Source: a virus. From it: DNA of 43,757 nt. Within the stretch, counting starts at the first letter, position 1. Each line of letters starts with the position of its first letter. A program made the translations under genes and the position numbers. The stretch lies in the IMG/VR virus record IMGVR_UViG_3300032213_001560; one strand, written 5' to 3'. Under the pieces are notes generated by a model. That model made no database searches and was not told the DNA's origin. It saw nothing but the letters and a program-made list of their open reading frames with translations. Below, piece after piece: positions 1 to 42,519 of this stretch.

Positions 1-123
1 CAAAGAAAAACGCTCCAACGGACAGCTAAAGTTTTTCACCCCAGAGCCGCGCTCATAGTTTCAGCCAGTAATCTAACGGTTTTACTCATAGTTTTTCCGC
101 GCTCATACAGACCATAAGTTGCA
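1..123. repeat. Terminal direct repeat copy 1 (identical to 43635..43757); circular-closure overlap, unique genome length 43,634 bp
   Basis: Bases 1..123 (caaagaaaaacgctccaacgg...accataagttgca) recur exactly at 43635..43757 by direct reading. The repeat lies inside coding sequence (3' end of the VirE-like ORF and the XRE ORF). Confidence 0.95.
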
Positions 124-206
124 AGCGATATACCAAGTTTTTCAGCCATTTGCGTTTGGTTCAATTCTAGTTTGTGGCGCAGTAACTTAAGTTCCTTGTG
201 TGTCAT
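36..206 (-). CDS. XRE-family helix-turn-helix transcriptional regulator (56 aa, below ORF-track cutoff)
   Basis: Manual minus-strand translation: MTHKELKLLRHKLELNQTQMAEKLGISLATYGLYERGKTMSKTVRLLAETMSAALG. The stretch QTQMAEKLGIS...YERG is the classic XRE/Cro-CI HTH pattern. The ORF converges on and overlaps the 3' end of the VirE-like gene across the circular junction. Confidence 0.7.
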   Translation of the reverse strand: MTHKELKLLRHKLELNQTQMAEKLGISLATYGLYERGKTMSKTVRLLAETMSAALG

Positions 207-366
207 TTTCTTTACCTTCCAAATAAATTGTTAATCCCCAGTCTTTGCGGTATTGCTTGCCCTCAAAGAAAGCTTTTAAATACTGTTGACAATCCGGCCA
301 TGTTTTAGGTGATGCCATTTGCCTATTGAACAAGCCATCGCAAAACCCATCCTGCCTTGCTGTCAT
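187..366 (-). CDS. hypothetical protein (59 aa)
   Basis: Manual translation: MTARQDGFCDGLFNRQMASPKTWPDCQQYLKAFFEGKQYRKDWGLTIYLEGKENDTQGT. It has an ATGA stop/start junction with the upstream 38-aa ORF and overlaps the XRE start by 20 nt. Confidence 0.45.
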   Translation of the reverse strand: MTARQDGFCDGLFNRQMASPKTWPDCQQYLKAFFEGKQYRKDWGLTIYLEGKENDTQGT

Positions 367-479
367 ACGTTTACCGTATCAATTGACCAGCCAGCCGCCA
401 CCACTTGCGGCATGGTTGCTTTCGGTGGAAAAATGCGCTTCAGTTCATTGAGGCAATCAAAGATTGAACCCGTTTTCAT
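363..479 (-). CDS. hypothetical small protein (38 aa)
   Basis: Manual translation: MKTGSIFDCLNELKRIFPPKATMPQVVAAGWSIDTVNV. Its stop overlaps the next ATG (ATGA). No clear SD. Confidence 0.3.
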   Translation of the reverse strand: MKTGSIFDCLNELKRIFPPKATMPQVVAAGWSIDTVNV

Positions 480-489
480 AGTACGGTTT

Positions 490-585
490 TTATAACGTAA
501 GATATACATACAATGCCCTTCCTGCAAACATGATTATTCCGAAATAAACCAAGATAATTATGACTACTATTAATTGGTTAAGCAT
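490..585 (-). CDS. hypothetical single-TM peptide (31 aa)
   Basis: Manual translation: MLNQLIVVIIILVYFGIIMFAGRALYVYLTL. Its ATG shares one base with the upstream stop (TAATG). The peptide is almost entirely hydrophobic. Confidence 0.3.
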   Translation of the reverse strand: MLNQLIVVIIILVYFGIIMFAGRALYVYLTL

Positions 586-818
586 TATTCCCCCCAAATG
601 TTAGTGGCTTTGTTTAGGTCTTCGATATGGAATATTTCCTTGATTGCTGCCGCCCTTCGTTGGCTATTCCATACAATGCCTTCGTTACGCTGTAGTTTAA
701 CTTCCTCGCCGTAATGTTCTGATACGTGCCTAACTGGTGCATTGGCTCGACCTTGTGCATAGCCAGCAAGCATACAAAACAAGCCTAGTGTGATGATAGG
801 GATGATGATTTTATACAT
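585..818 (-). CDS. small secreted protein (77 aa from ATG 818)
   Basis: ORF track gives 585..845. The internal ATG at 818 has GGAGG 8 nt upstream and sits 2 nt after the stop of the upstream ORF. The N-terminus MYKIIIPIITLGLFCMLAGYAQG looks like a signal peptide. Confidence 0.6.
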   Translation of the reverse strand: MYKIIIPIITLGLFCMLAGYAQGRANAPVRHVSEHYGEEVKLQRNEGIVWNSQRRAAAIKEIFHIEDLNKATNIWGE

Positions 819-820
819 GG

Positions 821-1117
821 CTATAACCTCCAACCAAGAAAGCATAGTGTTTCACCACCGCATACAGGATCGCCATTAGGGTATTTTTCAAACTGGTTGC
901 GGTTATTATATGTACCACCATTATCATTAGGATGACTTTCTAGCGTAGGTAAGCTAATCGCTGGTAGGTCTATAGCCAAAACGCTTTCAGGCTCTCTAAA
1001 GACGAATACCAGCACAATTAGACATAGTACGGTTTTAACGAATAGCCATAGACCGTTGTTAGCTTCGTCTAACTGTTGCGCCTTGGATTGGTTGGTAATG
1101 TGGAATGATTTAGGCAT
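821..1117 (-). CDS. hypothetical membrane protein (98 aa)
   Basis: ORF track. Central hydrophobic span LWLFVKTVLCLIVLVFVF. Tightly packed in the leftward operon. Confidence 0.6.
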   Translation of the reverse strand: MPKSFHITNQSKAQQLDEANNGLWLFVKTVLCLIVLVFVFREPESVLAIDLPAISLPTLESHPNDNGGTYNNRNQFEKYPNGDPVCGGETLCFLGWRL

Positions 1118-1143
1118 GGTGTTCCCCTTTCAAATGAGTTTGA

Positions 1144-1731
1144 TTAAAATCGCATTGGCATTAAAACACCTGTAAAGGCATCATAATTGACATTCACTAA
1201 GATAGGGTTAGTGCGTCCGGTGCTGGTGAGTTTGATGCGGGAGGTTTTTAAACCAGTCAGTAGTTTGGCAACCTTGCCAAAATCAGCCATATACGCGCAG
1301 TTAAAAGCAATATCGTTTTCCACGTTATCGGCTGGCATTGAAGGTATAACGCGCCTCCAGTCTGGAAAATTGCCATAGACAGGCTTAAAGTCAAAACTTC
1401 CAATAATTTCGATCAACTCGCCTTGTTTATCACGCATTACAGCCTGTAATGTTTGATCTGTTATCTCAATTGTTACATTCCATTTAGTTTTCTCGCTCTT
1501 AGCTAGTTTTAACGCCTTTTCGATTGCATTATTACCCAAAATAAAAGAGCTAACAGGCTGCTCTTGTTTATTAGCTGCTATTGCATGTAGCCTATGGCCA
1601 TCGGTGGCAATCAGGCCGCTAGTGCCATCTGCATAGGTTTCAACGCATACGCCGTTTAGATAATAGCGTGTTTGTTCATAAGATGATGCAAATGCAACGG
1701 CTTCTAGTTCATTTGGTTTAATGGTAATCAT
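1144..1731 (-). CDS. DnaN-like (DNA polymerase III beta sliding clamp) protein lacking domain I (195 aa)
   Basis: TRYYLNGVCVE, ATDGHRLH, FPDWRRVIP and the C-terminal LMPMRF match the hallmark DnaN strings (RYYLNGMLFE, ATDGHRLA, FPDYRRVLP, VMPMRL) in the same order. Length is about half of bacterial DnaN. Confidence 0.8.
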   Translation of the reverse strand: MITIKPNELEAVAFASSYEQTRYYLNGVCVETYADGTSGLIATDGHRLHAIAANKQEQPVSSFILGNNAIEKALKLAKSEKTKWNVTIEITDQTLQAVMRDKQGELIEIIGSFDFKPVYGNFPDWRRVIPSMPADNVENDIAFNCAYMADFGKVAKLLTGLKTSRIKLTSTGRTNPILVNVNYDAFTGVLMPMRF

Positions 1732-1756
1732 TGTAATATCCCTTTCAAGTGGTTGG

Positions 1757-1933
1757 TTAGTTTGTGGCTTTGGTGATGGCTGCTAATGCTTGCGCTTTTA
1801 ATGCTTCGTTGTGTCCTGCATTTTCACCGCAAGCGATAAATTCCTGCAAAGCCTCCAGCAACATCTTATTATCAGCAATCAGCTTGTCTTGTGCCTTGGC
1901 GTTCAAGATTGATTCTTCTAGGCATGAATACAT
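1757..1933 (-). CDS. hypothetical protein (58 aa; alternative upstream start at 2014)
   Basis: ORF track gives 1757..2014. The start at 1933 (MYSCLEESILNAK...) avoids a 58-nt overlap with the upstream ORF. Confidence 0.5.
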   Translation of the reverse strand: MYSCLEESILNAKAQDKLIADNKMLLEALQEFIACGENAGHNEALKAQALAAITKATN

Positions 1934-1956
1934 AATTTTGGCTTTCTGTTTGTGGG

Positions 1957-2208
1957 TTATGCTACTAACTTTATTTTGTATGTGTCGTTGTCTTTTATTG
2001 GGAACCAATAGCAATCGTTGTAAACGTAAATATCCTTTCCGCTGATTGCCTTGATTGTTGCGATGGCTAGAATGTCTTTATTATAGCCAGTGTAAAAAAT
2101 GATTTTATCCCCTGTATTAAACCGTGTTTCATTGTCTTTGGGCAGTTTAGCAAGATGCCTTGTGGCATCCGTACAAAGCGGTTTTTCGTCTAAATCCCAA
2201 ATATCCAT
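1957..2208 (-). CDS. hypothetical protein (83 aa)
   Basis: ORF track. Packed in the leftward operon. No motif recognised. Confidence 0.6.
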   Translation of the reverse strand: MDIWDLDEKPLCTDATRHLAKLPKDNETRFNTGDKIIFYTGYNKDILAIATIKAISGKDIYVYNDCYWFPIKDNDTYKIKLVA

Positions 2209-2211
2209 TGT

Positions 2212-2547
2212 TTACACTCCTGCCGCTGTTTGGTTATCACAAAACACAATGCCGTTATTGCCTACTTTATCACCAGCAGTCCCACGGATTGCGGCGCGTA
2301 ATTCATCAATGTTTTCGATTGTGTCATCTAACTTTGCAGCAATGGTGAATTGCACCATATAAGATGCCTTGGCAATGCGGATAGAATCGCCGCAAATAAT
2401 GCCTATCCGATTATCAGATTGCACCATTATCCGGCCTTCTGTTGGATTAGGATAAACAATAAAATCCTGCTCCTTACGCATACCAGTGAATTTTGCATTG
2501 AAGCTGATAGTGCCCATACAATTAGTGTGAATGTTTGTGACTTTCAT
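2212..2547 (-). CDS. hypothetical protein (111 aa)
   Basis: ORF track. Its stop lies 3 nt upstream of the next ATG. No motif recognised. Confidence 0.7.
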   Translation of the reverse strand: MKVTNIHTNCMGTISFNAKFTGMRKEQDFIVYPNPTEGRIMVQSDNRIGIICGDSIRIAKASYMVQFTIAAKLDDTIENIDELRAAIRGTAGDKVGNNGIVFCDNQTAAGV

Positions 2548-2576
2548 ATCTTTAACCCTTTCATGGTTGTTTGGTT

Positions 2577-2801
2577 TTAGGCGTTTAAGTATTCTTGAAT
2601 TGCTTTGTATGTATGCTTGATGCCGAGGCGCTTAGAAGTCAGTTGGAAAGCAGGGCTATTAATATTAACAGCTTTGATATTGTCTAAAGCAACCTTCAAA
2701 GCTTTTTCAATTAATCCTTTTGCCGATTCCACTGGCAAATAAGGGTAAGAATCAATAAATGCTTGTGAGTATGTGGCGGCGTATGTGTCTTTGTTTGTCA
2801 T
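2577..2801 (-). CDS. hypothetical protein (74 aa), first gene of the leftward early operon
   Basis: ORF track. AAGGGGA SD-like sequence upstream. Downstream of the TTGACT-17-TATTAT promoter. Confidence 0.7.
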   Translation of the reverse strand: MTNKDTYAATYSQAFIDSYPYLPVESAKGLIEKALKVALDNIKAVNINSPAFQLTSKRLGIKHTYKAIQEYLNA

Positions 2802-2824
2802 GGCAGTTAATCCCCTTTCAAAGA

Positions 2825-2843: not shown

Positions 2844-2851
2844 GTATTGTC

Positions 2852-3135: not shown

Positions 3136-3137
3136 TG

Positions 3138-3178: not shown

Positions 3179-3185
3179 TTTAACT

Positions 3186-3893: not shown

Positions 3894-5372
3894 ATGGAAA
3901 TTCTCTTAAACCCGCGTCAAATGGAGGTGTTGTCTAGCAAGGCGACCGAGATCCTGTATGGCGGAGCTGCTGGTGGTGGAAAATCGTATTTAATCAGGTC
4001 GTTAGCCATAGCGTTGTGTTATGACATTGCTGGCTTGCAGGTGTATTTGTTCCGTAGGACGTTCCCTGACTTGATGAGCAACCACATGAACGGGTACATG
4101 AGTTTTCCTGAAATGCTTGGCCCTATGATTGAGAAGGGGCAGGTTAAGATCCGTGAGGCCGAGATTATCTTTAGCAATGGTAGCAAGATCCATTTGTGTC
4201 ATTGCCAGCACGAGAAGGACGTAACCAAGTATCTAGGTGCGGAAATTCATGTGTTGCTGATGGATGAGCTTACTTCGTTTAGCGAGTATATCTATCGGTT
4301 TTTGCGTAACCGTTTGCGCCTTGGCGGGTTGCCTGTGCCGGATGCGTGGAAGTCAAAAGTTCCATTAATTGTGGCTGGGAGTAACCCCGGAGGTATTGGT
4401 CATGCGTGGGTAAAGCGGAGTTTTCTTGATAGTGCGGCGGCGTATGATGTGGTTCCCCAATCTGCTTCAGAGGGCGGGATGATGCGGCAATTTATCCCTG
4501 CGCGGTTGACGGATAACCCTACGTTGTTGAAGAATGACCCCGGCTATGCAGATAGGTTATGCGGTTTGGGTAGCGATGACTTGGTGAGGGCGATGCGCGA
4601 TGGAGATTGGAACATCGTAGCGGGGGCTGCGTTTGAGCAGTTAAACAGGGATAAACATTGTATCAGGCCGTTTGAGATTCCGCATTGGTGGACGCGGTTT
4701 ACAAGTTTAGACTGGGGTTCAAGTAAGCCGTATGCGATGGGGTGGTTTGCGGTGGCTGATGACGCGGTACACCTAGCTAAGACTGAGCGTTGGCCTGCGG
4801 TGAATATCGGTAAGGGTAGTATCATCATGTACCGTGAACTGTATGGCTGGAATGGTAAACCGGATGAGGGTGCGCGTGAGGAGTCGTGGGAGGTTGCCAA
4901 GAAAGTTGCGGCTATGGAGGGGGGTGATGAAAAGATAGCGTACCGTATCGGGGATTCGGCAATGTGGGCAAAGCATGATGGGCCTAGTATTGCCGAGAGG
5001 TTTATGGATGCACTTGTTCGTGAGGGTACAGATACGCCGAGCATGGAACAGTCACGCAAAGACAGGGCGGCTAACTATCTTGAGATTCGCAATCGATTTT
5101 CTAATTCGGATGGCGAGAAGGCAGGGTTTTATATTTTTGATACCTGCACGCATTTCTGGCGCACCATGCCAGACTTGCAGCTAGATGAACGCCAACCGGA
5201 GAAGGGATGGGATACATCGCAAGAAGACCATATAGCCGATATGGTAGGGTATGCGCTGGTGTCGCGGCCTACGATTATGGATAAACGCACCTATAACCGT
5301 CAGCAATATGATGATGCGCAGGACAAGGCTAGGGCTGCTCATTTGGGGTCTGCTAACGTGGGCAGATACTAG
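3894..5372 (+). CDS. terL: terminase large subunit
   Basis: 492-aa ORF. Walker A YGGAAGGGKSY, Walker B-like VLLMDELT, and a C-terminal nuclease-type region. The antisense ORFs inside it are spurious. Confidence 0.9.
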   Translation: MEILLNPRQMEVLSSKATEILYGGAAGGGKSYLIRSLAIALCYDIAGLQVYLFRRTFPDLMSNHMNGYMSFPEMLGPMIEKGQVKIREAEIIFSNGSKIHLCHCQHEKDVTKYLGAEIHVLLMDELTSFSEYIYRFLRNRLRLGGLPVPDAWKSKVPLIVAGSNPGGIGHAWVKRSFLDSAAAYDVVPQSASEGGMMRQFIPARLTDNPTLLKNDPGYADRLCGLGSDDLVRAMRDGDWNIVAGAAFEQLNRDKHCIRPFEIPHWWTRFTSLDWGSSKPYAMGWFAVADDAVHLAKTERWPAVNIGKGSIIMYRELYGWNGKPDEGAREESWEVAKKVAAMEGGDEKIAYRIGDSAMWAKHDGPSIAERFMDALVREGTDTPSMEQSRKDRAANYLEIRNRFSNSDGEKAGFYIFDTCTHFWRTMPDLQLDERQPEKGWDTSQEDHIADMVGYALVSRPTIMDKRTYNRQQYDDAQDKARAAHLGSANVGRY

Positions 5373-5443
5373 ATGTAGTAAATAATGCTTGACTCATACC
5401 AGATTTATTGTTTTTATGTAAAGGAACGATAAGTGGAGTTGAG

Positions 5444-5983
5444 ATGAGCAGGTACTTAGAGCTTTTAGAGCTAATAGACAAATACAAGCCGCAATCTCTT
5501 GTCGAGATCGGCGTGTGGAATGGCGCCAATGCTATCCGCATGATTAATAGGGCAAAGCAGCATCATGCAGATGTAACCTATACAGGTTATGATCTGTTTG
5601 AAGAAGCCAGCGCCGATACAGACTCCAAAGAGTTTAACGTTAAATCCCATAACCATATGAATGCAGTCGCGGCTTATATCCGTTCTGAAACGGGTGTGAC
5701 TCCTGTACTTGTTAAGGGTGATACTAATGTAACGTTGCCGACTAAGACTATTGCCGACTTTGTGTTTCTGGATGGTGGGCATAGCATTGAAACTATTACC
5801 AATGATTACAGCAAGGTGGGCTTGAGCAAAGTTGTTGTGCTGGATGATTACTACACCAATGGCCCAAATACAGAAAAATACGGATGTAACAAGGTAGTCG
5901 CCAATCTTAAAAACATAACCATCATGCCCACCAAAGATCCTGTTAAGGGCGGTGGGTTTACTCAGCTAGTGGTGGTGGCATGA
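5444..5983 (+). CDS. class I SAM-dependent methyltransferase (sugar O-methyltransferase-like, 179 aa)
   Basis: SLVEIGVWNGANAIRMI (SAM-binding motif region) and DFVFLDGGHS are typical of TylF/Methyltransf_24-like enzymes. Start moved to ATG 5444 (GTGGAG 5 nt upstream), in frame with track start 5408. Confidence 0.7.
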   Translation: MSRYLELLELIDKYKPQSLVEIGVWNGANAIRMINRAKQHHADVTYTGYDLFEEASADTDSKEFNVKSHNHMNAVAAYIRSETGVTPVLVKGDTNVTLPTKTIADFVFLDGGHSIETITNDYSKVGLSKVVVLDDYYTNGPNTEKYGCNKVVANLKNITIMPTKDPVKGGGFTQLVVVA

Positions 5984-6228
5984 TTATATCAATCCTTGCA
6001 GTTTTTCTTGGTTTGTTTATTGGGTTGCCTTGCGGGATATGGATTAAAGGCGTAGTAACTAAAATTTTATCTGATGGTTATTTTAATTTTTCTCCTGAAG
6101 AACGCAAAAAATTAATACAAGAACGTAAAGCAAACGTTTTATCAAATGTTTTGTTAATAAAAGCAATAGCTAGTGGCGGTGTGTTTTTTGTTGGGTTTAA
6201 ACTTTATCATATGTTGGTTCAGCAATGA
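5980..6228 (+). CDS. small two-TM membrane protein (82 aa)
   Basis: ATGA junctions at both ends. Hydrophobic spans IISILAVFLGLFIGLPCGIWI and LLIKAIASGGVFFVGFKLY. Confidence 0.7.
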   Translation: MIISILAVFLGLFIGLPCGIWIKGVVTKILSDGYFNFSPEERKKLIQERKANVLSNVLLIKAIASGGVFFVGFKLYHMLVQQ

Positions 6229-6635
6229 AAACCATCTGCGTGTCTGGCGGTTTTGATCCTATCCACATTGGCCATGTACGCATGATAGAAAAAGCAGCCG
6301 ACCTTGGCAACGTGGTTGTAATCCTTAACACCGATGAATGGCTTTTGCGTAAGAAAGGGTTCTTCGTAATGCCGTGGGAGCAGCGTAGGGAAATATTGCT
6401 GGCATTGCGCAGCGTGCATAATGTTATTATTGCGCGTGACGATGACGATACCGTATGCGAAACGCTCAAGTACCTAAAGCCGGATTACTTTGCTAATGGC
6501 GGCGATAGAACTACTAAGAATACACCAGAAAAGAAACTTTGTAAAGAATTAGGCATCACAATGCTTTGGGGTATGGGCGGCAAAAAGATTGCAAGCAGTA
6601 GTGAATTGGTTAAGAGGGCAAATGGCAAGATTTAA
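6225..6635 (+). CDS. HIGH-motif nucleotidyltransferase (cytidylyl/adenylyltransferase; RfaE/HldE domain II or TagD-like)
   Basis: The N-terminal ICVSGGFDPIHIGHVRMIE is the (T/H)xGH nucleotidyltransferase signature. ANGGDRT...SSSELV matches sugar-phosphate nucleotidyltransferases of the heptose/glycerol-phosphate type. Confidence 0.75.
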   Translation: MKTICVSGGFDPIHIGHVRMIEKAADLGNVVVILNTDEWLLRKKGFFVMPWEQRREILLALRSVHNVIIARDDDDTVCETLKYLKPDYFANGGDRTTKNTPEKKLCKELGITMLWGMGGKKIASSSELVKRANGKI

Positions 6636-6909
6636 AAAACGCGCATGGGGCTGGTATCTAGTTCTGCTTAATTTTCGGCAGTTCAAGGTAAAGCTGCTGC
6701 GTTTTAAACTTGGCGGTCAGTTATCAGTTCAATACCACAATCATAGAAGCGAGTTATGGCTATTCCTAACTGGAGTGCATAAGGGTAACTTTTGGCTGAT
6801 TAACAAGGGCGAGGTGCATACCTATTACGCTAATGGAGAGCGCCCGTTGGTGCTAGAAATCCAGTACGGCGAAAAGTGTAATGAATCTGACATTGTGAGG
6901 ATTCCATGA
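6622..6909 (+). CDS. cupin-domain protein, type II phosphomannose isomerase / GMP C-terminal domain-like (95 aa)
   Basis: RAWGWY..., KVKLLRFKLGGQLSVQYHNHRSELWLFLTG and EVHTY...LVLEIQYGEKCNESDIVRI follow the PMI/GMP cupin pattern (RPWG, KVK, LSLQxHxHRxEHW, IEVQxGxxxxEDDIxR). Start taken at ATG 6622. Confidence 0.7.
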   Translation: MARFKKRAWGWYLVLLNFRQFKVKLLRFKLGGQLSVQYHNHRSELWLFLTGVHKGNFWLINKGEVHTYYANGERPLVLEIQYGEKCNESDIVRIP

Positions 6910-7574
6910 TCGGCTGGTACACGGATAACGCTCTATCGCTTCAAGTGCTATCTGCTATACCCGACATTGAGCTAATGCACATAAAAGACTTTGCTCCTAT
7001 GCAAGATGTTCATGTTTTTTATGGTATCCACCGTGGCGCATCGCGTGCGATTCATCTGCTTAAATATTTTGGCATAGATTATTACTATATCGACAACGGC
7101 TATTTTGACGCTTTGTACGTCAATAGAAGCGGATTTAAGGGCATGGGAGGTAAATTCCGTGTTGTGAAGAATGATATGATTGAGCCTTGTGGATTTGAGG
7201 GTAGTTATAATTTTGATGTAAAGCGTACCATTATTATCCCTCCTACAGAATATACAGCAATGCACAATCTCACAACCCCTGAGGATTGGGGCAGGCTTGT
7301 TGGCCAACCTTTGGTAGATCATGGCGTTGAAATTCGCGTCAGAAAAAAAGATACCGAGATACCGCTTGAAGATGAATTGGCATGGTGTGACAGCGTCATA
7401 TCATTTAATTCAATGGTTATTATGCGTGCAATTGAAGCAGGAAAAGTTGTATGCGATACGCATGGCGTGCTACGCAATGATTATTTTTCGACATATAACA
7501 TTGAAGATATGAAAGCGTATTATGAGAAACGGCAGTTTACTATAGCGCAGCTTCGTGAGGGGGAATGGATATGA
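6906..7574 (+). CDS. hypothetical protein in the sugar island (222 aa)
   Basis: ATGA junction with the cupin ORF. No motif recognised. Context suggests a sugar-modifying or transfer role, but this is unproven. Confidence 0.6.
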   Translation: MIGWYTDNALSLQVLSAIPDIELMHIKDFAPMQDVHVFYGIHRGASRAIHLLKYFGIDYYYIDNGYFDALYVNRSGFKGMGGKFRVVKNDMIEPCGFEGSYNFDVKRTIIIPPTEYTAMHNLTTPEDWGRLVGQPLVDHGVEIRVRKKDTEIPLEDELAWCDSVISFNSMVIMRAIEAGKVVCDTHGVLRNDYFSTYNIEDMKAYYEKRQFTIAQLREGEWI

Positions 7575-8043
7575 AATTAAAGGAAAGATTTGAGCGTAAA
7601 TTTATCATTTCGGAAAGCGGGTGCTGGGAATGGACTGGCTCATTAAGCAGGCTTGGCTATGGCAATATACAGGTTAACAAGAAGAATATGAAAGCACACC
7701 GTGTAGCTTGGATGCTTTATAATGGGATATACCTAAAGCAGAAAATAATGATTTTCATGGAACGTGTGTTTTGCATAAATGTGATAATCGCAAATGCGTA
7801 AACCCAAAGCATTTATTTCTTGGTACTCATAAAGATAATATGAGTGATATGGTGAAAAAGGGTAGATACCCAAATAGGAACGGCAGCAATAACGGCAAAT
7901 CAAAGCTAAATGCTGATTCAGTTAGGCGTATTAGGGAAACAGCAAATCAATTAACAAGGGCAGAGGCTGCTAAGATTTTTAATGTGTGCCCAACAACAAT
8001 AAGCGCCGTTTTAAACAAAGTGGTGTGGGGGCACGTAGTATGA
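7565..8043 (+). pseudogene. HNH homing-endonuclease gene split by a 1-nt frameshift at a G-run (7724..7726)
   Basis: Frame A gives ...GCWEWTGS..GYG..KAHRVAWMLYNG. Frame B, open from 7723, continues DIPKAENNDFHGTCVLHKCDNRKCVNPKHLFLGTHKDNMSDM plus a C-terminal HTH-like region. One extra G in GGG would restore a single about-159-aa HNH_3-type ORF. Confidence 0.75.
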
Positions 8044-8813
8044 CATACACGGTTTATATCGGATGGGATTCTAGGGAGAAAATTTGTTATGACATTTGCC
8101 GAAAATCCATTGAACACAATACGCACTCAAAAGCAGAGATTATCCCATTATGCCACAAACAGCTTCGCAGGCAAGGATGGTTTACCCGCCCTTGGTTGAC
8201 AAACGCCTATGATGGTAACTGGACGGATCTTGTTGATGGCAGGCCATTTAGCACCGAGTTTTCGCATACTAGATTCCTTATCCCTTCGTTGATGGGCTAT
8301 AAGGGGTGGGCGCTGTTTATGGATTGCGACATGGTATGGGATGACAATATCAAAGACCTGTTTGCGCTCTGTGATGACAAATACGCCATAATGTGCGTAA
8401 AACATAACCATAAGCCACCAATGGGCGATAAAATGGATGGTGTGCCGCAGACAAACTATTACCGCAAGAACTGGTCTAGCTTTATGCTTATCAATTGTGG
8501 GCATCCAGCTAACAAAGATATTACGCCTGAGATGGTATCAACGCGCCCCGGTAGCTGGCTGCATAGTTTTGCGTGGCTGCAAGACTTCCAGATTGGCGCA
8601 TTGCCTACTACCTACAACTGGATTCAAGGCATATCACCAAGCAACGTCAAGCCAAAGGTTGTGCATTATACTGAGGGCGGGCCATGGTTTGACAATTACA
8701 AGGACGTTATGCACGCCGATACATGGTGGAAGTATTACAAACGCTGGCTTGAAGATGGTAACTATGAGCCTATTAAAGAAACGATTGATGTAGATTATGG
8801 GGTTTGGTTATGA
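8040..8813 (+). CDS. GT-A fold glycosyltransferase (family 8-like, DxD motif), 257 aa
   Basis: WALFMDCDMVWDDNIKDLF contains a DxD motif in the context typical of LPS-type retaining glycosyltransferases. Start taken at ATG 8040 (ATGA junction with the HNH ORF stop). Confidence 0.6.
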   Translation: MTYTVYIGWDSREKICYDICRKSIEHNTHSKAEIIPLCHKQLRRQGWFTRPWLTNAYDGNWTDLVDGRPFSTEFSHTRFLIPSLMGYKGWALFMDCDMVWDDNIKDLFALCDDKYAIMCVKHNHKPPMGDKMDGVPQTNYYRKNWSSFMLINCGHPANKDITPEMVSTRPGSWLHSFAWLQDFQIGALPTTYNWIQGISPSNVKPKVVHYTEGGPWFDNYKDVMHADTWWKYYKRWLEDGNYEPIKETIDVDYGVWL

Positions 8814-9787
8814 AAACCGCAATTGTAACAGGCGTGTGTGGTCAGGACGGTGCGTACTTAGCAAAGCACCTACTATCCCAAGGCTATAACGTTATTGGCT
8901 GGGCAAGACGCAATGCCTCACTTGCGGGGCTAAAATATCTTGGCGTTGAGTATCTTGTAAAGGTTGTTGATATTGATATTTGTGATCCGCACCACGTTGC
9001 AGACGAGATATATAAAACGCAGCCACAGGAATTATATAACCTTGCTGCACAATCGCATGTAGGGCTGTCGTTCAACAATGCAATGCAAACGTGTCAGGTA
9101 AACTACGGCGGCTACCTGAACATACTGCTTGCTGCTCGTAAGTTTGTACCAGCGTGCAAAATATATCAAGCCGGAACAAGCGAGATGTTTGGTTATTCAG
9201 CGGAAGGAATATGCAATGAACAAACTCCGTTTTCCCCTATGTCCCCGTATGCAATTTCGAAAGTCGCCGCGCATTGGGCAGGGGTCAATGCTCGATATGA
9301 AGCAGAACAATTTGTATGCAACGGTATTTTGTTCAATCACGAAAGTCCACTTAGGGGCAACGATTTTGTAACAAAGAAGATAACCAACTTTGTAAAGAAT
9401 TTTAGCGGTACAGAATGTTTAAAACTAGGCAATCTGGATGCCTCGCGTGATTGGGGCCATGCGCAGGACTATGTGATTGCCATGCACAAAATGCTGCAAG
9501 CACCTATGCCAGATGATTATGTTATTGCAACAGGTCACTCAACAACGGTTCGTAACTTTGTGCGTATGGCGTTTGAGGTTATTGGCAAAGGCATCATGTT
9601 TGAAGGCGAAGGCGTTAATGAATGTGGGTACGTCAACGGCGTGAAAGTAGTTGAAGTATCGCCAGAGTTCTACCGCCCTAATGATCTGAAATACTTAAGA
9701 GGTAGCGCTAAAAAAGCGCAGCAACGCCTTGATTGGACACCAACAATTACGATTGAACAGCTTGTAGGAGAAATGGTTACATCATGA
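8810..9787 (+). CDS. gmd: GDP-mannose 4,6-dehydratase
   Basis: TGVCGQDGAYLAKHLLSQGY (Rossmann GxxGxxG), YNLAAQSHVGLSF, YQAGTSEMFG, SPYAISKVAAHW (YxxxK) and CNGILFNHESPLRGNDFVTKKIT are collinear with bacterial GMD. ATG 8810 forms an ATGA junction. Confidence 0.9.
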   Translation: MKTAIVTGVCGQDGAYLAKHLLSQGYNVIGWARRNASLAGLKYLGVEYLVKVVDIDICDPHHVADEIYKTQPQELYNLAAQSHVGLSFNNAMQTCQVNYGGYLNILLAARKFVPACKIYQAGTSEMFGYSAEGICNEQTPFSPMSPYAISKVAAHWAGVNARYEAEQFVCNGILFNHESPLRGNDFVTKKITNFVKNFSGTECLKLGNLDASRDWGHAQDYVIAMHKMLQAPMPDDYVIATGHSTTVRNFVRMAFEVIGKGIMFEGEGVNECGYVNGVKVVEVSPEFYRPNDLKYLRGSAKKAQQRLDWTPTITIEQLVGEMVTS

Positions 9788-11439
9788 AAACAGCAGTTTG
9801 CACAACTTTTCCGTTAGATTATTACAATGTCTGCGCACGCGAAATGATTGTCACATTTGATAAGCATTGGCCTAAAGATGTGGATTTATTCATTGCATTG
9901 GACAAGGTAAGCAAAGAAGAATTGGCATTTTTACATCAGGATATTGGTGATATTCTCAAATCTGGGCGCGAGTTCTTTATATCAAATCAATGGACGGATG
10001 AAAAAGAGGCGTTTTATAAGCGCAATCAGGACTCACCTGATGTTAGCTACCGTTTCCATGTATGCAAGTTTGCGCACAAGGTATTTGCGCTAAAGGGCGT
10101 TGCTGACCATTGCCGCCAATTAGATTATACGGACATTATTTGGTTGGATGCTGATGTTATTACGAAGGCTGATTATGTGCCGGAAGATATGGGGGCAAAT
10201 GTTACAAAATTAGAAATATATGACGCCGCAACATTACAACGCATTGACGCTCCACATAGCGAATGCTCATTTATTCAATTTAGCCTTGAAGGTAAGGGCG
10301 GAGAAATTATTGACAAAATGCACAATTGCTATGTCACTGATGAAGTGCTTATGCTTGCTGGCTGGACAGATTGCGATGTGTTCGACCATGTAGCAAAAAA
10401 TTATTGCGTTTTGAATTTGTCAGAAGGCATAAAGGGATGGCATGTGTTCCCAGAATCAAAACTAGGCAAATACATGGAGCACCGCAAAGGGAACCGAAAG
10501 CATGTGGCTAAAACACAAAATATCATGCAGCCAAACGAAATACAGCGCCCTATTGTAGCGGATACCATGACTATTAAAACCATGAACTGCATTCCGCATG
10601 AACAGATCATTGCAAATATTAAAGAAAACCTTAAACAAATTAAAAAATGGGTAGAATACGTTAAACCGCACGATGAAACCGTGGTTATTTGCAGCGCGGG
10701 CGAAAGCTTGTCCTATTGTGATGTTAAGAAATGGGCGGATAAAGGTACAAAGATTGTTACGGTAAAACATGCCATTGATCGCTTGAAAGCATGGGGAATT
10801 AAGCCTTGGGCGTGTGTATTGCTAGACCCAAGACAGCATGTTGAGAAATTTATTAACACACCAGACAAGGATGTTATCTATTTTGTTGCTTCTATGGTTG
10901 ATCCGTCTGTTGTTAAGACGTTGTTAGATAACAATTGTATTGTTATTGGCTATCACGCAATGGTTGGCGCAGGCGAAGAAAAAATACTAGACAAAGGCAC
11001 TATGCTTGTTTCTGGCGGCAGCGCTACAGCCACTCGCTGCCTTGGCGTTCTGCATGAGTGCCTTGGGTTTAGCGACATCCATTGTTATGGTTACGACCTT
11101 TGCTACTTCACCAAGCCTGACATGAATAAGCGCGATGATGCTGGAAATCTCAAGTATATGGAAATTACTTTGGCTGCGAAAACATGGGGCGGAAAGCTAC
11201 AGCAGCGCACGTTTTGGACAGAAGGGCAGTTCTTGGCACAGGCGAAAGAACTGCATGATTTGTATAAAACCGAACAAGGGTTTAATATGGTACTTCATGG
11301 GAACGGTATTCCATCGTGGCAAAGAGCTTGCTTTGAGCAGTATAAGGCATGGGTAGATCAGTTTAATTCTAAAATAGACCAAATCAAACAAAACAGCGTA
11401 ACGCTACAAGAGTGGGAAAATGGAATTAGAGCAAAATGA
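9784..11439 (+). CDS. two-domain transferase: N-terminal DxD nucleotide-sugar transferase-like domain fused to a DUF115/MptE-like (Maf-type) domain, 551 aa
   Basis: The N-terminal half has DIIWLDADVITKAD (DxD). The C-terminal half has VVICSAGESLSY...VTVKHAIDRLKAWGIKPWACVLLDP...SGGSATATRCLGVLHECLGFSDIHCYGYDL, which matches the DUF115 pattern as I recall it. Confidence 0.6.
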   Translation: MKTAVCTTFPLDYYNVCAREMIVTFDKHWPKDVDLFIALDKVSKEELAFLHQDIGDILKSGREFFISNQWTDEKEAFYKRNQDSPDVSYRFHVCKFAHKVFALKGVADHCRQLDYTDIIWLDADVITKADYVPEDMGANVTKLEIYDAATLQRIDAPHSECSFIQFSLEGKGGEIIDKMHNCYVTDEVLMLAGWTDCDVFDHVAKNYCVLNLSEGIKGWHVFPESKLGKYMEHRKGNRKHVAKTQNIMQPNEIQRPIVADTMTIKTMNCIPHEQIIANIKENLKQIKKWVEYVKPHDETVVICSAGESLSYCDVKKWADKGTKIVTVKHAIDRLKAWGIKPWACVLLDPRQHVEKFINTPDKDVIYFVASMVDPSVVKTLLDNNCIVIGYHAMVGAGEEKILDKGTMLVSGGSATATRCLGVLHECLGFSDIHCYGYDLCYFTKPDMNKRDDAGNLKYMEITLAAKTWGGKLQQRTFWTEGQFLAQAKELHDLYKTEQGFNMVLHGNGIPSWQRACFEQYKAWVDQFNSKIDQIKQNSVTLQEWENGIRAK

Positions 11440-13684
11440 GTCATATCCTGAAATTGAACAAATGGATGCTGAAGAAGCGCCACCACCGCTAGAACCAAAA
11501 GCTCCAGAAGATGTAAACCTTGCCGAAGAACTTTCGCAAGATGCTGAAGGAGCTAAGGAATTAACAAAGATTGCCAATGAGTGCGTCAAAGCATTTGAAG
11601 ATGACCTTGAATCTCGTAGCGATTGGGAGGAAATGCACACCACCTACCGCGAGATTTACTACCAGCGCGATATGCCGGAAACCCCGCCTTGGACGGGTTC
11701 TAGCGAAGAAAGCCTGCCAATTCTTTCTGAAGCTGTAGGCCAGTTCCAAAGCCGTTCTTATAAAGCGTTTTTCCCAAATCGTTATTTTATTGATTGCATC
11801 CCTGTAGGAAAAAGTTCCACAAATGCTCGCGAACGTGCCGAACGCATCTCCCGCCATATGTCCTATCAACTTGGTGTGCTTGACCGGACGTATAAAGCAA
11901 ATAAAAACCAGATGTTTATGGCCGCAGCCCTTGATGGCAGTGATTTTACCAAAACTTATTGGTCGCCTGTACGCAGACAAGTGGTTATTGAGCGTGTGCG
12001 TGCGGAAGATTTGGTCGTTCCTTACGGCGTTGGGCCACGCCGTTTAGAAGAAATTGAACGTAAAACGCAAATTAAATGGTGCAGCGTCAACGAAACACGC
12101 ATTTTAAAAGCCGCTGGATGGTATATTGACGAAGGTACGCCATATACGCAGCTTGGCGACCAAACATCAATGCAGCAAGCCGCAGATGAGGCTGAAGGGG
12201 TACAAAAAAGCAGTACTTACGACCAATCAGCAGGTCAATGCTGCATCCTTGAACAGCATACCTTGCTGGATTTAGATGATGATGGCATTGCAGAACCTTA
12301 TATTGTGTGGATTGACCGTCAAAGCAAGAAAATCCTGCGCATCCAGATTCGCTATGAAGTAGATAAAACAGGTTTACCGCTGAATAATAAAGAACCTGTT
12401 GAATATTTTACGCATTATCAGTTTTTACCTAACCCAAATGGGTTTTATGGCCTTGGTTTTGGCTTCTTGCTGGCAAAAATTAACCTTGCTGTTAATAAAC
12501 TTTCCCGCATGTTTATTGATGCCAACGAGCTTTCGGTTGTTGGAAATCTTACTTACCTGATTAGCGACCAGCTTGGGTTACCGGGTGATAGTTTTGAAAT
12601 GTCGCTTGGCAAAGGCATCAAAATCCCGCGCTCTGTGCAAGATATTAACGCGCACTTTAAGCAATTAAACTTTGCACCGCCTAGCCAGCAGACAATGCAG
12701 ATGATTGAGCAGTTGCGTACTGCTGCCTCCCGACTTAGTTCGGCAACTGACATTCTTTCTGGGCAGCCTGACAAGGTTTATCAGCCTGAAGCCATGCTTG
12801 CCATGATTGAACAGGGTTTGCAGCTTTTTAGCTCTGTTCAGGAGTTTTTGGGCGTTGCAATGGAAGATGAATTGCAAAAAGTCTACCGCCTAAATGCAAA
12901 ATACCTGCAAGAAGATGCTAACTTTGTGTTTGGCGATGACCAAATTACAGTGACACGCGAAGATTACAAAGACGACTTCCGCGTTATGCCAATTTTTGAT
13001 CCTAAGTATTCTACCCGTTCGCAGAAGCTTGCAAAAGCTAAAGCCGAGTATGAATTTGCTATTGGCAATCCACTAATGCAGCAAGATCAAGAATCTATCT
13101 ATCTTGTTTCTAAAAACGTGCTTGAATCGTTGGATGCAGAGGATATTGACGCAAAACTTAAAAAACCCGCGCCTCCTCCTGCACCAGCACGCATTGATGA
13201 CCAGAATCTTGAGAACGCATACTTCCTCATGCCGCCTGATAAAAGGCCATTGTTTGATGTATACCCAGATCAAGACCATTTACAGCACATTAGGAAAGTT
13301 GATGAGTTTATTGCGTTTATTGACGCCTCATCACCGCTTGAAGTGCCTAATTTACCAGGTGGCGACCCCGGTATTTCACAGTTAATTGCCACATTAAGCG
13401 GCGAACAAAAGAAAGAACTTGTTGCCAATCTGCTGCGTCATAGGTCGCTGCATATGGCGTTTATGTATGGTCAACTTAATGGGGTTATGGATGAGCAAGG
13501 ACAACCAATCACACCTAACAACGGTGGAGCAGGATCTGCTGGAGGGGTGGCAACGACACCGAGTGACAACCCTGATTTGGCGCAAATTATGTCAGGATTA
13601 CAATCCCTACTCGGCGCTTCTAGTATGCAAGCCGGAGGAACTGGGCAGGTATCAGGGGCAGGCGGAAATGATGGAAGTGCTTAA
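11420..13684 (+). CDS. portal protein (754 aa) with acidic N-terminal and Gly-rich C-terminal extensions
   Basis: Largest head-module ORF in the late operon, between terL and the scaffold/capsid genes. Assigned by size, position and general portal-like composition. No diagnostic motif verified. Confidence 0.7.
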   Translation: MELEQNESYPEIEQMDAEEAPPPLEPKAPEDVNLAEELSQDAEGAKELTKIANECVKAFEDDLESRSDWEEMHTTYREIYYQRDMPETPPWTGSSEESLPILSEAVGQFQSRSYKAFFPNRYFIDCIPVGKSSTNARERAERISRHMSYQLGVLDRTYKANKNQMFMAAALDGSDFTKTYWSPVRRQVVIERVRAEDLVVPYGVGPRRLEEIERKTQIKWCSVNETRILKAAGWYIDEGTPYTQLGDQTSMQQAADEAEGVQKSSTYDQSAGQCCILEQHTLLDLDDDGIAEPYIVWIDRQSKKILRIQIRYEVDKTGLPLNNKEPVEYFTHYQFLPNPNGFYGLGFGFLLAKINLAVNKLSRMFIDANELSVVGNLTYLISDQLGLPGDSFEMSLGKGIKIPRSVQDINAHFKQLNFAPPSQQTMQMIEQLRTAASRLSSATDILSGQPDKVYQPEAMLAMIEQGLQLFSSVQEFLGVAMEDELQKVYRLNAKYLQEDANFVFGDDQITVTREDYKDDFRVMPIFDPKYSTRSQKLAKAKAEYEFAIGNPLMQQDQESIYLVSKNVLESLDAEDIDAKLKKPAPPPAPARIDDQNLENAYFLMPPDKRPLFDVYPDQDHLQHIRKVDEFIAFIDASSPLEVPNLPGGDPGISQLIATLSGEQKKELVANLLRHRSLHMAFMYGQLNGVMDEQGQPITPNNGGAGSAGGVATTPSDNPDLAQIMSGLQSLLGASSMQAGGTGQVSGAGGNDGSA

Positions 13685-31463: not shown

Positions 31464-31549
31464 TCCTCATTTCCCTACTACTATCTGGCTGCACCGTATG
31501 CGCTAAGGGAGAGTGTCCGGTGTTTCCTACGAGTGCACCTCGGCAATGA
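31451..31549 (+). CDS. small lipoprotein (32 aa), outer-membrane spanin-like candidate
   Basis: Manual translation: MAKIILISLLLSGCTVCAKGECPVFPTSAPRQ, with lipobox LSGC. It overlaps the holin 3' end by 13 nt and converges on the TrpRS-like gene, with 23 nt of antisense overlap. Confidence 0.45.
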   Translation: MAKIILISLLLSGCTVCAKGECPVFPTSAPRQ

Positions 31550-32273
31550 TTAGATCGGCAAGTTCGGTTTTGAAATCCTTAAACCTTGTATGCTTTTCTT
31601 TGCCCCCAACTGCCTTATAGATAGTGCGTAAGTTTACCATTTCCGGCGTATCATCATCTATCGACATAGCTGTTTTTGCTACCATTATCTTGCGCCTGAT
31701 TGTTTCTGCATTATCAATAATATTAATCCTGCTCATATCATCCGGTTCAGATTTGCTCATTTTCTTTGTTCCGTCCGTAAGCGACATAATGCGGGGATAT
31801 TCGCTTACAACAGCTTCCGGCTTAGGGAAAGACTTCTCTGGAAGCTTATCATGTAAATCTCTGATAAACTCTATGTGTTGTACTTGGTCGTTACCTACGG
31901 GGATATGTGTGCCTTGGAGATAGAATATGTCGGCAGCCATCAGCACAGGATAGGTAAGCAATGAAGCTACCTGCGCCTCTTTCTCCGATTTTTCCTTGTA
32001 CTGCGTCATCCGCGAAAGATGACCTATCTTGGCATATTGCAATAAATTCGCATACAAGATTAAATGTTCTTTAGGGAAATGGCTTTGGATGTCAACATCT
32101 AACCCAATATCAATAAGGATTTTGGCAGTCTTCATAACTTCTTCGCGGCTGTGAATTCCGTGGAGGTCAGCAACAAATACCATGCAACCAAGTTTTCTTG
32201 CTTGCTTGATCGCGCCAAGGTAATTTCCTAAATGAATATTTCCTGTTGGCCTTATGCCTGTGACGTATTTCAT
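31527..32273 (-). CDS. trpS: tryptophanyl-tRNA synthetase-like class I aaRS, C-terminally truncated (248 aa)
   Basis: IRPTGNIHLGNYLGA (HIGH-equivalent), SRMTQYKEKS, LLTYPVLMAADI, IPVGNDQVQHIEFIRDL and KMSKS are collinear with bacterial TrpRS. It ends at ...FKTELADLIIAEVHS, short of the usual about 330 aa. Confidence 0.85.
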   Translation of the reverse strand: MKYVTGIRPTGNIHLGNYLGAIKQARKLGCMVFVADLHGIHSREEVMKTAKILIDIGLDVDIQSHFPKEHLILYANLLQYAKIGHLSRMTQYKEKSEKEAQVASLLTYPVLMAADIFYLQGTHIPVGNDQVQHIEFIRDLHDKLPEKSFPKPEAVVSEYPRIMSLTDGTKKMSKSEPDDMSRINIIDNAETIRRKIMVAKTAMSIDDDTPEMVNLRTIYKAVGGKEKHTRFKDFKTELADLIIAEVHS

Positions 32274-37779: not shown

Positions 37780-38394
37780 TTACTCTGGCAGATTCACTTG
37801 CTCTGTTTGTGCCTCTGCTATCCGTTTTGCTTCAAGCACATCTACATCGTCGGCAATCTTACGCATCTCAGCGCCAAATGCAGCAAGGTGCTTTTTCTTC
37901 TCTTTAGGAACCGCCTTTAACCAAGCGTCTAATGCAGCCCCGCCTTGTCCAGCAACGTCACGACATTCTTGTTTGAGTGCTTCAAGATCGGTGTCTATAG
38001 TCATTACCAGTGGCTTAACAGTGAAGGGCTTGCGATTGCTTTTAGATGTAGTCAAAGCCATCACGCGCTCGGCTGGTATATCGCTTAAATGGCTAATACG
38101 AATGCCACCCACTTCCATGCCAGCCCACTTAACTGTAGGGTCGCCATACAGCGTTAATGACTTACCAACATACGATTGTCCTTGACCGCCCCAACAATTC
38201 ACCAGAACACGGCACATTGATTTGCATGGCTTCCACGGTTTGCCGCCATCATTTTCATAGTTAATCAAAATTGGTTGCTCACCAGAAACTTTTGAAACTT
38301 TGGTAATTTTAATTGTGAGAGTTTTACCGCCACAAAAATCATCAAAATTCAATTGGTCTGACTTTGGTTGTATTACTGATGTCATATCGGTCAT
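37780..38394 (-). CDS. hypothetical protein downstream of the exonuclease (204 aa)
   Basis: ORF track. ATGA junction with the YqaJ-like gene. No motif recognised. Confidence 0.7.
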   Translation of the reverse strand: MTDMTSVIQPKSDQLNFDDFCGGKTLTIKITKVSKVSGEQPILINYENDGGKPWKPCKSMCRVLVNCWGGQGQSYVGKSLTLYGDPTVKWAGMEVGGIRISHLSDIPAERVMALTTSKSNRKPFTVKPLVMTIDTDLEALKQECRDVAGQGGAALDAWLKAVPKEKKKHLAAFGAEMRKIADDVDVLEAKRIAEAQTEQVNLPE

Positions 38395-39062
38395 ACGCTT
38401 ATCTCCCTATCAACTCGTTCTGTTGGTATCAAGCCAACGATTTTTTCACCATATTCAACAATAATCTTATCCAGCTTCTCATGGAAAATAGTTGCTGCTT
38501 TAATAATTGCAGCTTGCACTTTCTCATCTGGCAAGGCGCGGATAACCTTCATCGGCATACCACCGCAATAACTAATGTAGTCCAGCCATTCACGCTCGGA
38601 TACAAGCAATCCTGTCTGCACCTGAATAACATGCTCGTCAGGAATTAGACCAGTCATGATAACTTCCATCTGGAATTTCTGCTTGCGTGATTTGGCCTCA
38701 ATTGCTCCAACGTCACCGCATAACCCATCTGGCGAGTACCCTAGCGTAAATCCCCACTTGTCGTTTGTAATGAAGCCGCATGTCGTAACTGGCTCATAGT
38801 TTTCATCATATGTACCACGCGCATATGACTCATCATCGGAACCGCGCAACATATCGTCACCAATATAGGTAGGCTCAACATAATTGTTAATACGCTGTGC
38901 TGCCAATTCGTATAAATGCGCTTTCTCTTTTTCATTCTGCGCGTATTCCAGTTTCTTAGCGGTGATGATTAACTTCATTTCGGATGCCGTCAGCAATCCG
39001 CAACGCAAGGCCAACCACTCAGCCGAACCTTGGTAAACCTCGTTATGGTATGTGATGGTCAT
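38391..39062 (-). CDS. YqaJ-type (lambda Exo-like, PD-(D/E)XK) recombination exonuclease, 223 aa
   Basis: QGSAEWLALRCGLLTASEM, YSPDGL and GAIEAKSRK reproduce the YqaJ family signature (QxSxEWxxxRxGxxTAS, SPDG, ExK). Confidence 0.8.
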   Translation of the reverse strand: MTITYHNEVYQGSAEWLALRCGLLTASEMKLIITAKKLEYAQNEKEKAHLYELAAQRINNYVEPTYIGDDMLRGSDDESYARGTYDENYEPVTTCGFITNDKWGFTLGYSPDGLCGDVGAIEAKSRKQKFQMEVIMTGLIPDEHVIQVQTGLLVSEREWLDYISYCGGMPMKVIRALPDEKVQAAIIKAATIFHEKLDKIIVEYGEKIVGLIPTERVDREISV

Positions 39063-40885: not shown

Positions 40886-40986
40886 ACGATACAGATAAAG
40901 ACAGGATGAACGCAGTGTGCTGGGTTATCATAGCACTGCTGTTTGCATCGGCGGCATATAAACCGACAAGAGGGCGTTCATTATGA
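40882..40986 (+). CDS. single-TM peptide (34 aa)
   Basis: Manual translation: MNDTDKDRMNAVCWVIIALLFASAAYKPTRGRSL. ATGA junctions at both ends. Confidence 0.5.
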   Translation: MNDTDKDRMNAVCWVIIALLFASAAYKPTRGRSL

Positions 40987-42380: not shown

Positions 42381-42427
42381 CTAGGCGCGGCGAGCAATCT
42401 CCCGATTCTCCCTTTCAGCGCGTCTAG
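42381..42427. other. 9-bp stem (ctaggcgcg / cgcgtctag, one G-T pair) enclosing a loop with TCTCCC x2
   Basis: 42381..42389 pairs with 42419..42427. tctccc occurs twice in the loop. The region is locally GC-rich compared with the AT-rich flank. Confidence 0.55.
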
Positions 42428-42519
42428 TGTCGGCTCCAGATTCATCGGGGGATGGTCGAGTGACGAAAGCAAGCAAGTCTGTACCAGCAGAATTAGACGA
42501 TGACACGTCACAAACGGCT

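Follow-up and report, generated by a model that had tools for sequence, protein, structure and literature searches.

A short beta-clamp homologue of a phage keeps the clamp-binding-motif pocket and lacks the parts that close the ring

The window analyzed here is the whole 43,757-nucleotide stretch of the viral record IMGVR_UViG_3300032213_001560 from IMG/VR. Near its left end, a leftward gene encodes a short homologue of beta, the bacterial sliding clamp (DnaN). The original prediction, made from the sequence, had described an open reading frame (ORF) of 195 codons with the landmarks of DnaN in order, and all of these motifs were found at their places in the protein: RYYLNG at residues 22-27, ATDGHRL at 42-48, FPDWRRVIP at 122-130, and MPMRF at 191-195. 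The region after FPDWRRVIP, given as about 65 residues, was exactly 65 residues long. When the protein was compared with the three Pfam profiles of the beta clamp, only DNA_pol3_beta_2 (PF02767) passed its cutoff, with an E value of 3.4e-9 over residues 9-101. DNA_pol3_beta_3 (PF02768) matched weakly, residues 138-194 facing positions 70-121 of the 121 in the profile, and beta_1 (PF00712) had no match in the protein. With phmmer, the best E value against clamps of the PDB was 2e-10, and the alignment paired residues 9-139 with beta 139-258 and residues 135 (approximately) to 194 with beta 311-365. The family profile, which comprised 78 homologues, reached an E value of 4e-29 against the same clamps. 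The match to phrog_3007 covered the full length (E value of 1.3e-32; residues 1-194 against positions 2-185 of 190). The score against TIGR00663, the DnaN equivalog, was 59.1 bits, far under the cutoff of 137.65, and the PADLOC defence models gave no match to the protein at an E value of ≤1. When all six frames of the window were searched by tblastn with the complete E. coli DnaN sequence, this ORF was the sole significant match (E value of 2.4e-12), and all other matches had E values of at least 2.7. Therefore, no upstream exon or shifted frame that would restore the missing parts of the clamp had been overlooked.

The structure of the protein as a monomer was predicted by AlphaFold2 with the 78-sequence alignment. 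The result was a confident clamp fold, with a mean predicted local distance difference test score (pLDDT) of 93.8 and a predicted template modelling score (pTM) of 0.90. Residues 1-114 formed two beta-alpha-beta-beta-beta motifs, equivalent to a complete domain II. They were followed by a short helix in the FPDWRRV linker, a 10-residue stretch of lower confidence, and then a helix with three strands (residues 145-190). All three channel-lining helices were present in the model. A Foldseek search of the PDB with this model ranked the E. coli beta clamp first (E value of 7.5e-10; query TM-score [TMq] of 0.70). The alignment spanned 257 columns for a query of 195 residues, and it therefore reaches the C terminus of the clamp by skipping about 60 residues of the target. 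When E. coli DnaN was added to the family alignment with MAFFT, two clean gaps appeared, one at domain I (beta 1 to about 125) and another at beta 259-314. The E. coli sequence in this alignment agreed with the target segments printed by HMMER (137-292 and 311-366). As predicted, the ORF starts at the equivalent of DnaN domain II, and the E values, the predicted fold, and the Foldseek ranking put the similarity to DnaN well above what chance would give. The earlier description of a half-size clamp lacking domain I was correct for domain I. However, the protein is not simply beta minus domain I, as half of domain III is also gone. According to the model, it is 1.5 clamp domains, i.e., 3 of the 12 repeat motifs of a ring, or a quarter-ring arc.

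The third motif was assigned by its own matches. The family profile could be extended weakly into beta 259-292, in the N-terminal half of domain III, as a prolongation of the main alignment. An assignment of the third motif to that half was considered and rejected. Each clamp domain consists of two halves that share homology, and the extension was therefore read as homology between internal repeats. A separate significant HMMER domain aligned the third motif with beta 318-367, with shared identities at beta F319, N320, Y323, D326, and MPMR. Together with the match to beta_3 and the extent of the Foldseek alignment, these data indicate that the retained motif is the C-terminal half of domain III, or a hybrid ending with that half. 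A hybrid origin by unequal deletion is conceivable. Every PDB sequence match to the short clamp was a clamp chain of at least 366 residues, and no solved structure of the short form was found among them. In BFVD, many predicted phage structures of 160-250 residues had the same fold.

The clamp-binding-motif (CBM) pocket of beta is made of subsite I (R152, L155, T172, G174, H175, R176, L177, P242, R246, V247, V360, and M362) and subsite II (H175, N320, Y323, V344, M362, P363, M364, and R365), and the dimer interface involves I78 and F106 in domain I and I272 and L273 in domain III, plus R103, E298, and E304 (PMC11139829). We found that 17 of the 18 pocket residues were identical to those of E. 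coli beta in the window protein. The exception was V344, replaced by T174, at a position that is not conserved among clamps (2024 beta-clamp review, PMC11139829). Across the 78 homologues, the fraction of the majority residue was 0.83 at pocket positions, compared with 0.40 elsewhere. R22, Y24, G27, T43, D44, G45, and P123 were invariant, and nearly all positions with at least 75% conservation fell in the five segments that form the pocket. The pocket residues were the most conserved positions of the family. The alignment columns of the dimer interface (I78, R103, F106, I272, L273, E298, and E304, and also I305, which we take to belong to it) were empty in the query and in 78 of the 78 homologues. 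Without domain I and the interface-bearing half of domain III, the protein cannot form the canonical dimeric ring of beta, in line with what had been predicted. No second conserved segment pointing to another interface was seen in the 78-homologue alignment, where the residues at the free beta-sheet edge of domain II were not conserved either. The copies from Dhillonvirus (about 170 amino acids; L001 at 7007..7516 and L006 at 5010..5525) and those of the P0064 subgroup retained all pocket motifs, but little was left of the second helix of domain II, which lines the channel. The direction of evolution was clear: the pocket was retained and the ring was abandoned. The isoelectric point of the window protein was 6.7, with a net charge of 0; the family medians were 6.3 and -1, respectively.

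Next, the same truncated architecture was searched for in sequence databases. A word-indexed search gave 90 homologues of 166-310 amino acids, and an exhaustive profile search gave 1,586 representatives of clusters at 50% identity with E values of ≤1e-30. Among the best 150 of these 1,586 representatives, 149 were within 176-272 amino acids. By tblastn, 203 deposited phage records also contained a homologue, each with an identity of about 30%. Sorted by the first word of the phage name, they included Salmonella (91), Escherichia (32), Klebsiella (24), Burkholderia (8), and others. Identity to Bcep781 gp15, Shigella phage EP23 gp08, and Escherichia phage TheodorHerzl (Bas14) gp7 was 30-33%, at a query cover of 95-99%. 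An alignment with EP23, Bcep781, TheodorHerzl, and metagenomic members showed a common architecture of about 170-240 amino acids, from the start of domain II to a C terminus at MPMR. The ratio of nonsynonymous to synonymous substitution rates (dN/dS) was 0.10 against the closest homologue (82% amino-acid identity), and the gene is thus under purifying selection. At the DNA level, 12 kb of the window had no match in the phage collection by megablast, and peptide-pattern scans of genome and viral contigs with the short-clamp protein as the sole query found no relative.

The original prediction had overestimated the novelty of this protein, since short homologues from phages without a polymerase were described in 2011 and about 200 annotated phage records contain a short homologue. 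Five of 12 phage polIII-beta homologues were short in that description, which gave them as covering the second and third domains (Kazlauskas & Venclovas 2011, NAR 39:8291). For a number of viral clamp homologues, the same authors inferred horizontal acquisition, one of the signs being that the virus has no polymerase, and assumed that such copies are dispensable for replication (Kazlauskas & Venclovas 2011, NAR 39:8291). No other study came up when the full-text literature was searched for truncated or fragmentary phage clamps. The short phage clamp is already known as a kind, and the window copy is a divergent member: it shares family, motifs, and length class with the short polIII-beta homologues of PHROG 3007, but it is only about 30% identical to any deposited one. 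In contrast to the 2011 description, only half of domain III is present here, and the conserved core is the pocket, a refinement that, as far as we found, had not been stated before. What is added here is the 1.5-domain definition, the demonstration at residue level of an intact pocket and a missing interface, an estimate of family size, the conserved C-terminal P-x-W tail in two-thirds of the family, and the correction of a label. Phage records annotate these genes as "DNA polymerase III beta subunit," "putative beta-clamp protein," or "RusA-like Holliday junction resolvase," and Bcep781 gp15 appears in GenBank as "DNA Pol III b subunit fragment." The RusA-like label has its source in PHROG 3007 and is found in many RefSeq/Pharokka-style records (e.g., NC_016566.1, NC_004333.2, and NC_013600.1). 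RusA (PF05866) was absent from the Pfam matches of the window protein at an E value of ≤10, and the fold was that of a beta clamp. A RusA-like resolvase was therefore ruled out, and the label is a propagated misannotation.

The tail was seen in other members of the family. Among 131 homologues with a clean architecture, 88 had a C-terminal tail of at least 8 amino acids past MPxR (e.g., P0064, P0081, P0046, and P0120). A P-x-W motif was present in 66 of the 88 tails, with the consensus [A/L]-P-[A/S/D]-W-[A/V/I/L]; its offset was fixed (7-12 residues). Of the tailed proteins, 37 ended in Ala-Ala, resembling a ClpX degron. The window protein and its own subgroup were without a tail, and their C terminus is like that of bacterial beta. 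The tail could be a pseudo-CBM folding into the protein's own pocket, or a motif for a partner. In the AlphaFold2 model of P0064, it had a pLDDT of 66-76. The longer members, including P0201 (410 amino acids), had no recognizable fused domain.

The coordinates of the features in the window are collected in Table 1. An exact direct repeat of 123 bp is found at the two ends (1..123 = 43635..43757), as from a circular assembly, so that the record probably represents an entire circular genome of about 43.6 kb. All ORFs of at least 191 amino acids outside the head/tail block at 13.8-20.1 kb, except the large terminase (3894..5372), were scanned with Pfam and/or PHROGs. The gene inventory of the original prediction was confirmed by these scans, both in the VirE-type NTPase and the three nucleases that it had listed and in its statement that no polymerase, clamp loader, or primase-polymerase is recognizable: no polymerase, clamp loader, or primase was matched by the scanned ORFs, several of which had no match at all. 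The VapE/VirE-like helicase was the sole replicative NTPase found. The DEDD exonuclease gene is located between the endolysin and holin genes, apart from the other genes of DNA metabolism. Other scanned genes with a match encode a DNA methylase and proteins for structure, lysis, and sugar modification.

Table 1. Features of the clamp gene, its product, and genes of DNA metabolism in the window
Feature	Coordinates	Strand	Remarks
Short beta-clamp homologue gene	1144..1731	-	195 amino acids plus stop; ATG start; PHROG 3007 member
Ribosome-binding site AAGGGA (Shine-Dalgarno-like)	1739..1744	-	7 nt 5' of the ATG; read from the sequence
Complete DnaN domain II, residues 1-118	1378..1731	-	AlphaFold2 secondary structure; alignment to beta 126-240
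Pocket residues within the domain II part	1378..1731		R22, L25, T43, G45, H46, R47, L48
Interdomain linker FPDWRRVIP, residues 122-130	1342..1368	-	Lines pocket subsite I through P123, R127, and V128
Lone beta-alpha-beta-beta-beta motif replacing domain III, residues 139-195	1147..1317	-	Pfam, HMMER, MAFFT, and Foldseek
C-terminal-half signatures in residues 139-195			F143, N144, Y147, V189, M191, P192, M193, R194
Leftward run of about 10 small genes, including the clamp gene	36..2801	-	ORF list
DEDD/RNase H-like exonuclease with N-terminal helix-turn-helix	29787..30683	+	298 amino acids; phrog_403 "DNA polymerase exonuclease subunit"
YqaJ exonuclease	38391..39062		Pfam/PHROGs scan
VRR-NUC nuclease	40983..41510		Pfam/PHROGs scan
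VapE/VirE-like helicase	42427..43692	+	421 amino acids, no primase domain; PF05272, E value of 1e-47; phrog_1313, E value of 4e-65

The clamp gene lies in an antisense operon that abuts the terminase genes. The leftward run to which it belongs diverges from the terminase operon at about 2802-3220, and its end faces the VapE gene across the circular junction. Promoter-like sites 5' of the run, at 2898-2869 and 2880-2852 on the minus strand, were not above chance. Elsewhere in the genome, a minus-strand gene (31527..32273) encodes a truncated tryptophanyl-tRNA synthetase-like protein of 248 amino acids, which scored 170 bits against TIGR00233 (trpS; cutoff of 176.75). It matched positions 6-254 of the 328 in the profile, leaving unmatched about 75 C-terminal positions, taken to be the anticodon-binding part. 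A sugar/modification island (5408..11439, plus strand) lies between the large terminase and portal genes; its genes encode a Methyltransf_24 protein, a weakly GT8-like protein, a GDP-mannose 4,6-dehydratase (E value of 7e-104), and an MptE-like/DUF115 protein of 551 amino acids.

The surroundings of the gene in its relatives were also examined. In the window and at loci L003/L004, L005, and L008, the short-clamp gene was within about 1-2 kb of a gene for a VapE-family helicase or primase-helicase. The VapE-type relatives adjoining short-clamp genes had 716-761 amino acids, and three out of four carried a fused Toprim or PrimPol domain. A different setting was seen in Dhillonvirus (EP23 and TheodorHerzl), Bcep781, and Klebsiella phage ZC2: there, the short clamp is encoded within the structural module, either singly or as part of a small antisense cassette. 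A position on the opposite strand of the head/tail morphogenesis module was seen in at least three unrelated phage groups (L001 at 7007..7519, L002 at 7001..7582, L006 at 5007..5525, and L012 at 11339..11917). The short clamp of Dhillonvirus occurs together with a 763-residue DNA polymerase I, and an A-family polymerase is present in Bcep1-like phages. The missing polymerase is therefore a property of the window genome and not a trait of the family. Several other carrier genomes also appear to be without a polymerase, e.g., L007, which has Toprim-DnaB, ERF, and RusA. An all-against-all comparison of seven loci revealed no conserved neighboring gene. A scan of the phage proteins of the window for CBM-like motifs gave four unconvincing matches, all internal and none terminal, and the sole match in a replication protein was QMEVI, inside the YqaJ exonuclease. 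Five replication proteins of Dhillonvirus contained no CBM-like motif. The lack of a conserved neighbor and of a convincing CBM in the phage points to partners in the host.

Several known proteins bear comparison with the short clamp. Bacterial DnaN (about 366 residues, three domains) shares with it the fold of domain II and of the C-terminal half of domain III, along with the near-identical pocket, but the window protein is without domain I, the N-terminal half of domain III, and the dimer interface. E. coli also reportedly makes beta*, a UV-inducible product of an internal start in dnaN that comprises domains II and III and is said to be active as a clamp. Both beta* and the phage protein lack domain I; however, beta*, at about 240 residues, has a complete domain III, whereas the phage protein, with no counterpart to beta 259-314 and a single beta-alpha-beta-beta-beta motif past the linker, has only half. 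The herpesvirus proteins UL42 and UL44 are loader-independent processivity factors with a clamp fold and an open ring, rich in positive charge, and they bind DNA directly (PMC9690074). They are PCNA-like and highly basic, whereas the phage family is near neutral and has lost a channel helix in some lineages. A strongly basic DNA-binding face of the UL42/UL44 type is not found in the window protein, as its isoelectric point and net charge indicate.

We then considered what such a protein might do. In bacteria, QL[SD]LF-like CBMs of the alpha, epsilon, and delta subunits of DNA polymerase III (Pol III), of Pol II, Pol IV, and Pol V, and of Hda, MutS, MutL, and further partners dock in the beta pocket. 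The arc retained by the phage consists of exactly the elements that form this hydrophobic pocket, and the deleted elements are exactly those that close the ring. The kept pocket, the lost ring parts, the near-neutral charge, and the lack of a second conserved segment together favor a clamp mimic that stays soluble and does not encircle DNA. We give an even chance to such a mimic, predicted to bind host CBMs as a decoy or as a handle for recruitment. The gene would then encode a functional, minimized derivative of beta, composed of domain II and half of domain III, made from the leftward operon, and in no need of a clamp loader. Its conserved pocket may bind host proteins bearing CBMs, with two possible outcomes. 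By competition, the protein would act as a sponge against host beta for delta and the loader, Hda, MutS/MutL, and translesion polymerases, and host replication control, repair, and clamp loading would be disturbed. By capture, host partners such as Pol III would be held for the phage replisome. Among the four options of the original prediction, a decoy that binds clamp-interacting host proteins fits best, given a pocket that is both nearly identical to that of E. coli beta and the most conserved part of the family.

There are precedents for parts of this scheme. The monomeric beta variant I272A/L273A binds delta about 50-fold more tightly than the dimer (PMC11139829), and a monomeric pocket module could therefore be a potent competitor. 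This variant, seen in the delta:beta structure 1JQL, is a laboratory precedent for a ringless form with an intact pocket, but it is engineered and full-length. Other phages without a polymerase are known to manipulate the clamp hub, since MuC of one such phage binds beta via CBMs and activates late transcription, and a small RNA of lambda raises dnaN translation. We give even odds to the reading, hitherto undescribed, that host clamp partners are sponged or captured by a natural, minimal CBM-pocket module present in about 1,600 phage lineages.

Several points weigh against a soluble mimic. The pocket motifs are also the most conserved ones in real clamps, so that a clamp-like role in an unusual oligomer remains compatible with the data. 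The lone half-domain exposes a face that is normally buried, which suggests some self-association. A general CBM sponge would hinder host Pol III, which a polymerase-less phage presumably needs. The VapE-type primase-helicase beside the gene in several relatives fits an adaptor between the host polymerase and the phage fork as well as it fits a decoy. Finally, no experimental characterization of any family member (binding, oligomerization, or phenotype) was found in the literature.

Such an adaptor, although unlikely, is the alternative that we take most seriously. The short clamp would then be a stoichiometric component of the phage replisome. Its pocket would hold host Pol III, through the CBM of alpha or epsilon, or the clamp loader, and another surface would bind the VapE-type helicase or the origin complex, so that the polymerase is recruited to phage forks. 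It is supported by a window genome in which a helicase was found and neither a polymerase nor a primase, by the short distance between the clamp and VapE-family genes in the window and at the loci listed above, and by the several carriers, such as L007, that look polymerase-less. However, neither a second conserved segment nor a conserved partner gene was found. Moreover, the genes of Dhillonvirus, Bcep781, and ZC2 are far from the replication genes, and the first two phages have a PolA of their own.

An unconventional oligomeric clamp is improbable in our view. The half-domains could pair across a 2-fold axis into a pseudo-domain III, giving a C-shaped dimer of three domains, and two such dimers could form a tetramer of D2 symmetry, with 4 x 1.5 = 6 domains around DNA, that serves host Pol III. 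The internal pseudo-symmetry of clamp domains would make this pairing geometrically possible, as judged from the fold, and the oligomer would bury the face exposed by the lone half-domain. The reported clamp activity of beta* also speaks for it. All three channel-lining helices are kept in the window protein, but most of one is lost in other subfamilies, the residues of the native interface are all absent, and no conserved segment was seen outside the pocket. In addition, no clamp loader was found in the phage, and a D2 ring would display pockets on both faces, unlike the clamps that loaders are known to handle. It is a long shot that such an assembly of orphan half-domains, as a C-shaped dimer or as a D2 tetramer with 12 motifs in a six-domain ring and pockets on both faces, represents a new type of clamp. 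If true, a fourth kind of sliding-clamp architecture would join the beta dimer, the PCNA/gp45 trimer, and the UL44 C-clamp.

Heterodimerization with host beta or its poisoning, also put forward in the original prediction, came out less well supported. The free sheet edge of domain II would pair with the opened interface of the host clamp, blocking ring closure or trapping it in dead-end hetero-complexes. Since the interdomain boundaries of clamps are all built alike, such edge pairing is conceivable. However, the protein has neither of the two parts that make up the canonical interface, domain I and the N-terminal half of domain III, and conservation is lacking at the edge. Nor would poisoning account for the strongest constraint, which is on the pocket, and we regard this reading as very unlikely. 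A decaying or accidental fragment of a captured host dnaN, as the GenBank label of Bcep781 gp15 and the 2011 view of such copies as horizontally acquired and dispensable might imply, is effectively refuted by the low dN/dS and by the same architecture in about 1,600 clusters (50% identity) and the 203 phage records from many host genera, and it also fits poorly with the good ribosome-binding site and the confident, compact predicted fold.

Bacterial replication and repair have their central docking site in the pocket of the beta clamp, which is also a target for antibiotics, and in this very large phage family little of the clamp besides the pocket remains. Should the protein indeed be a natural soluble pocket module, it would represent a new principle of host takeover, in which the phage makes a mimic of the hub itself rather than a hub-binding peptide. 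Such a module would also provide a ready-made minimal scaffold for studies of CBM binding and for inhibitor screens. The BASEL collection of E. coli K-12 phages includes carriers of a homologue (Bas14 TheodorHerzl and Bas77-81), and the idea is therefore directly testable.

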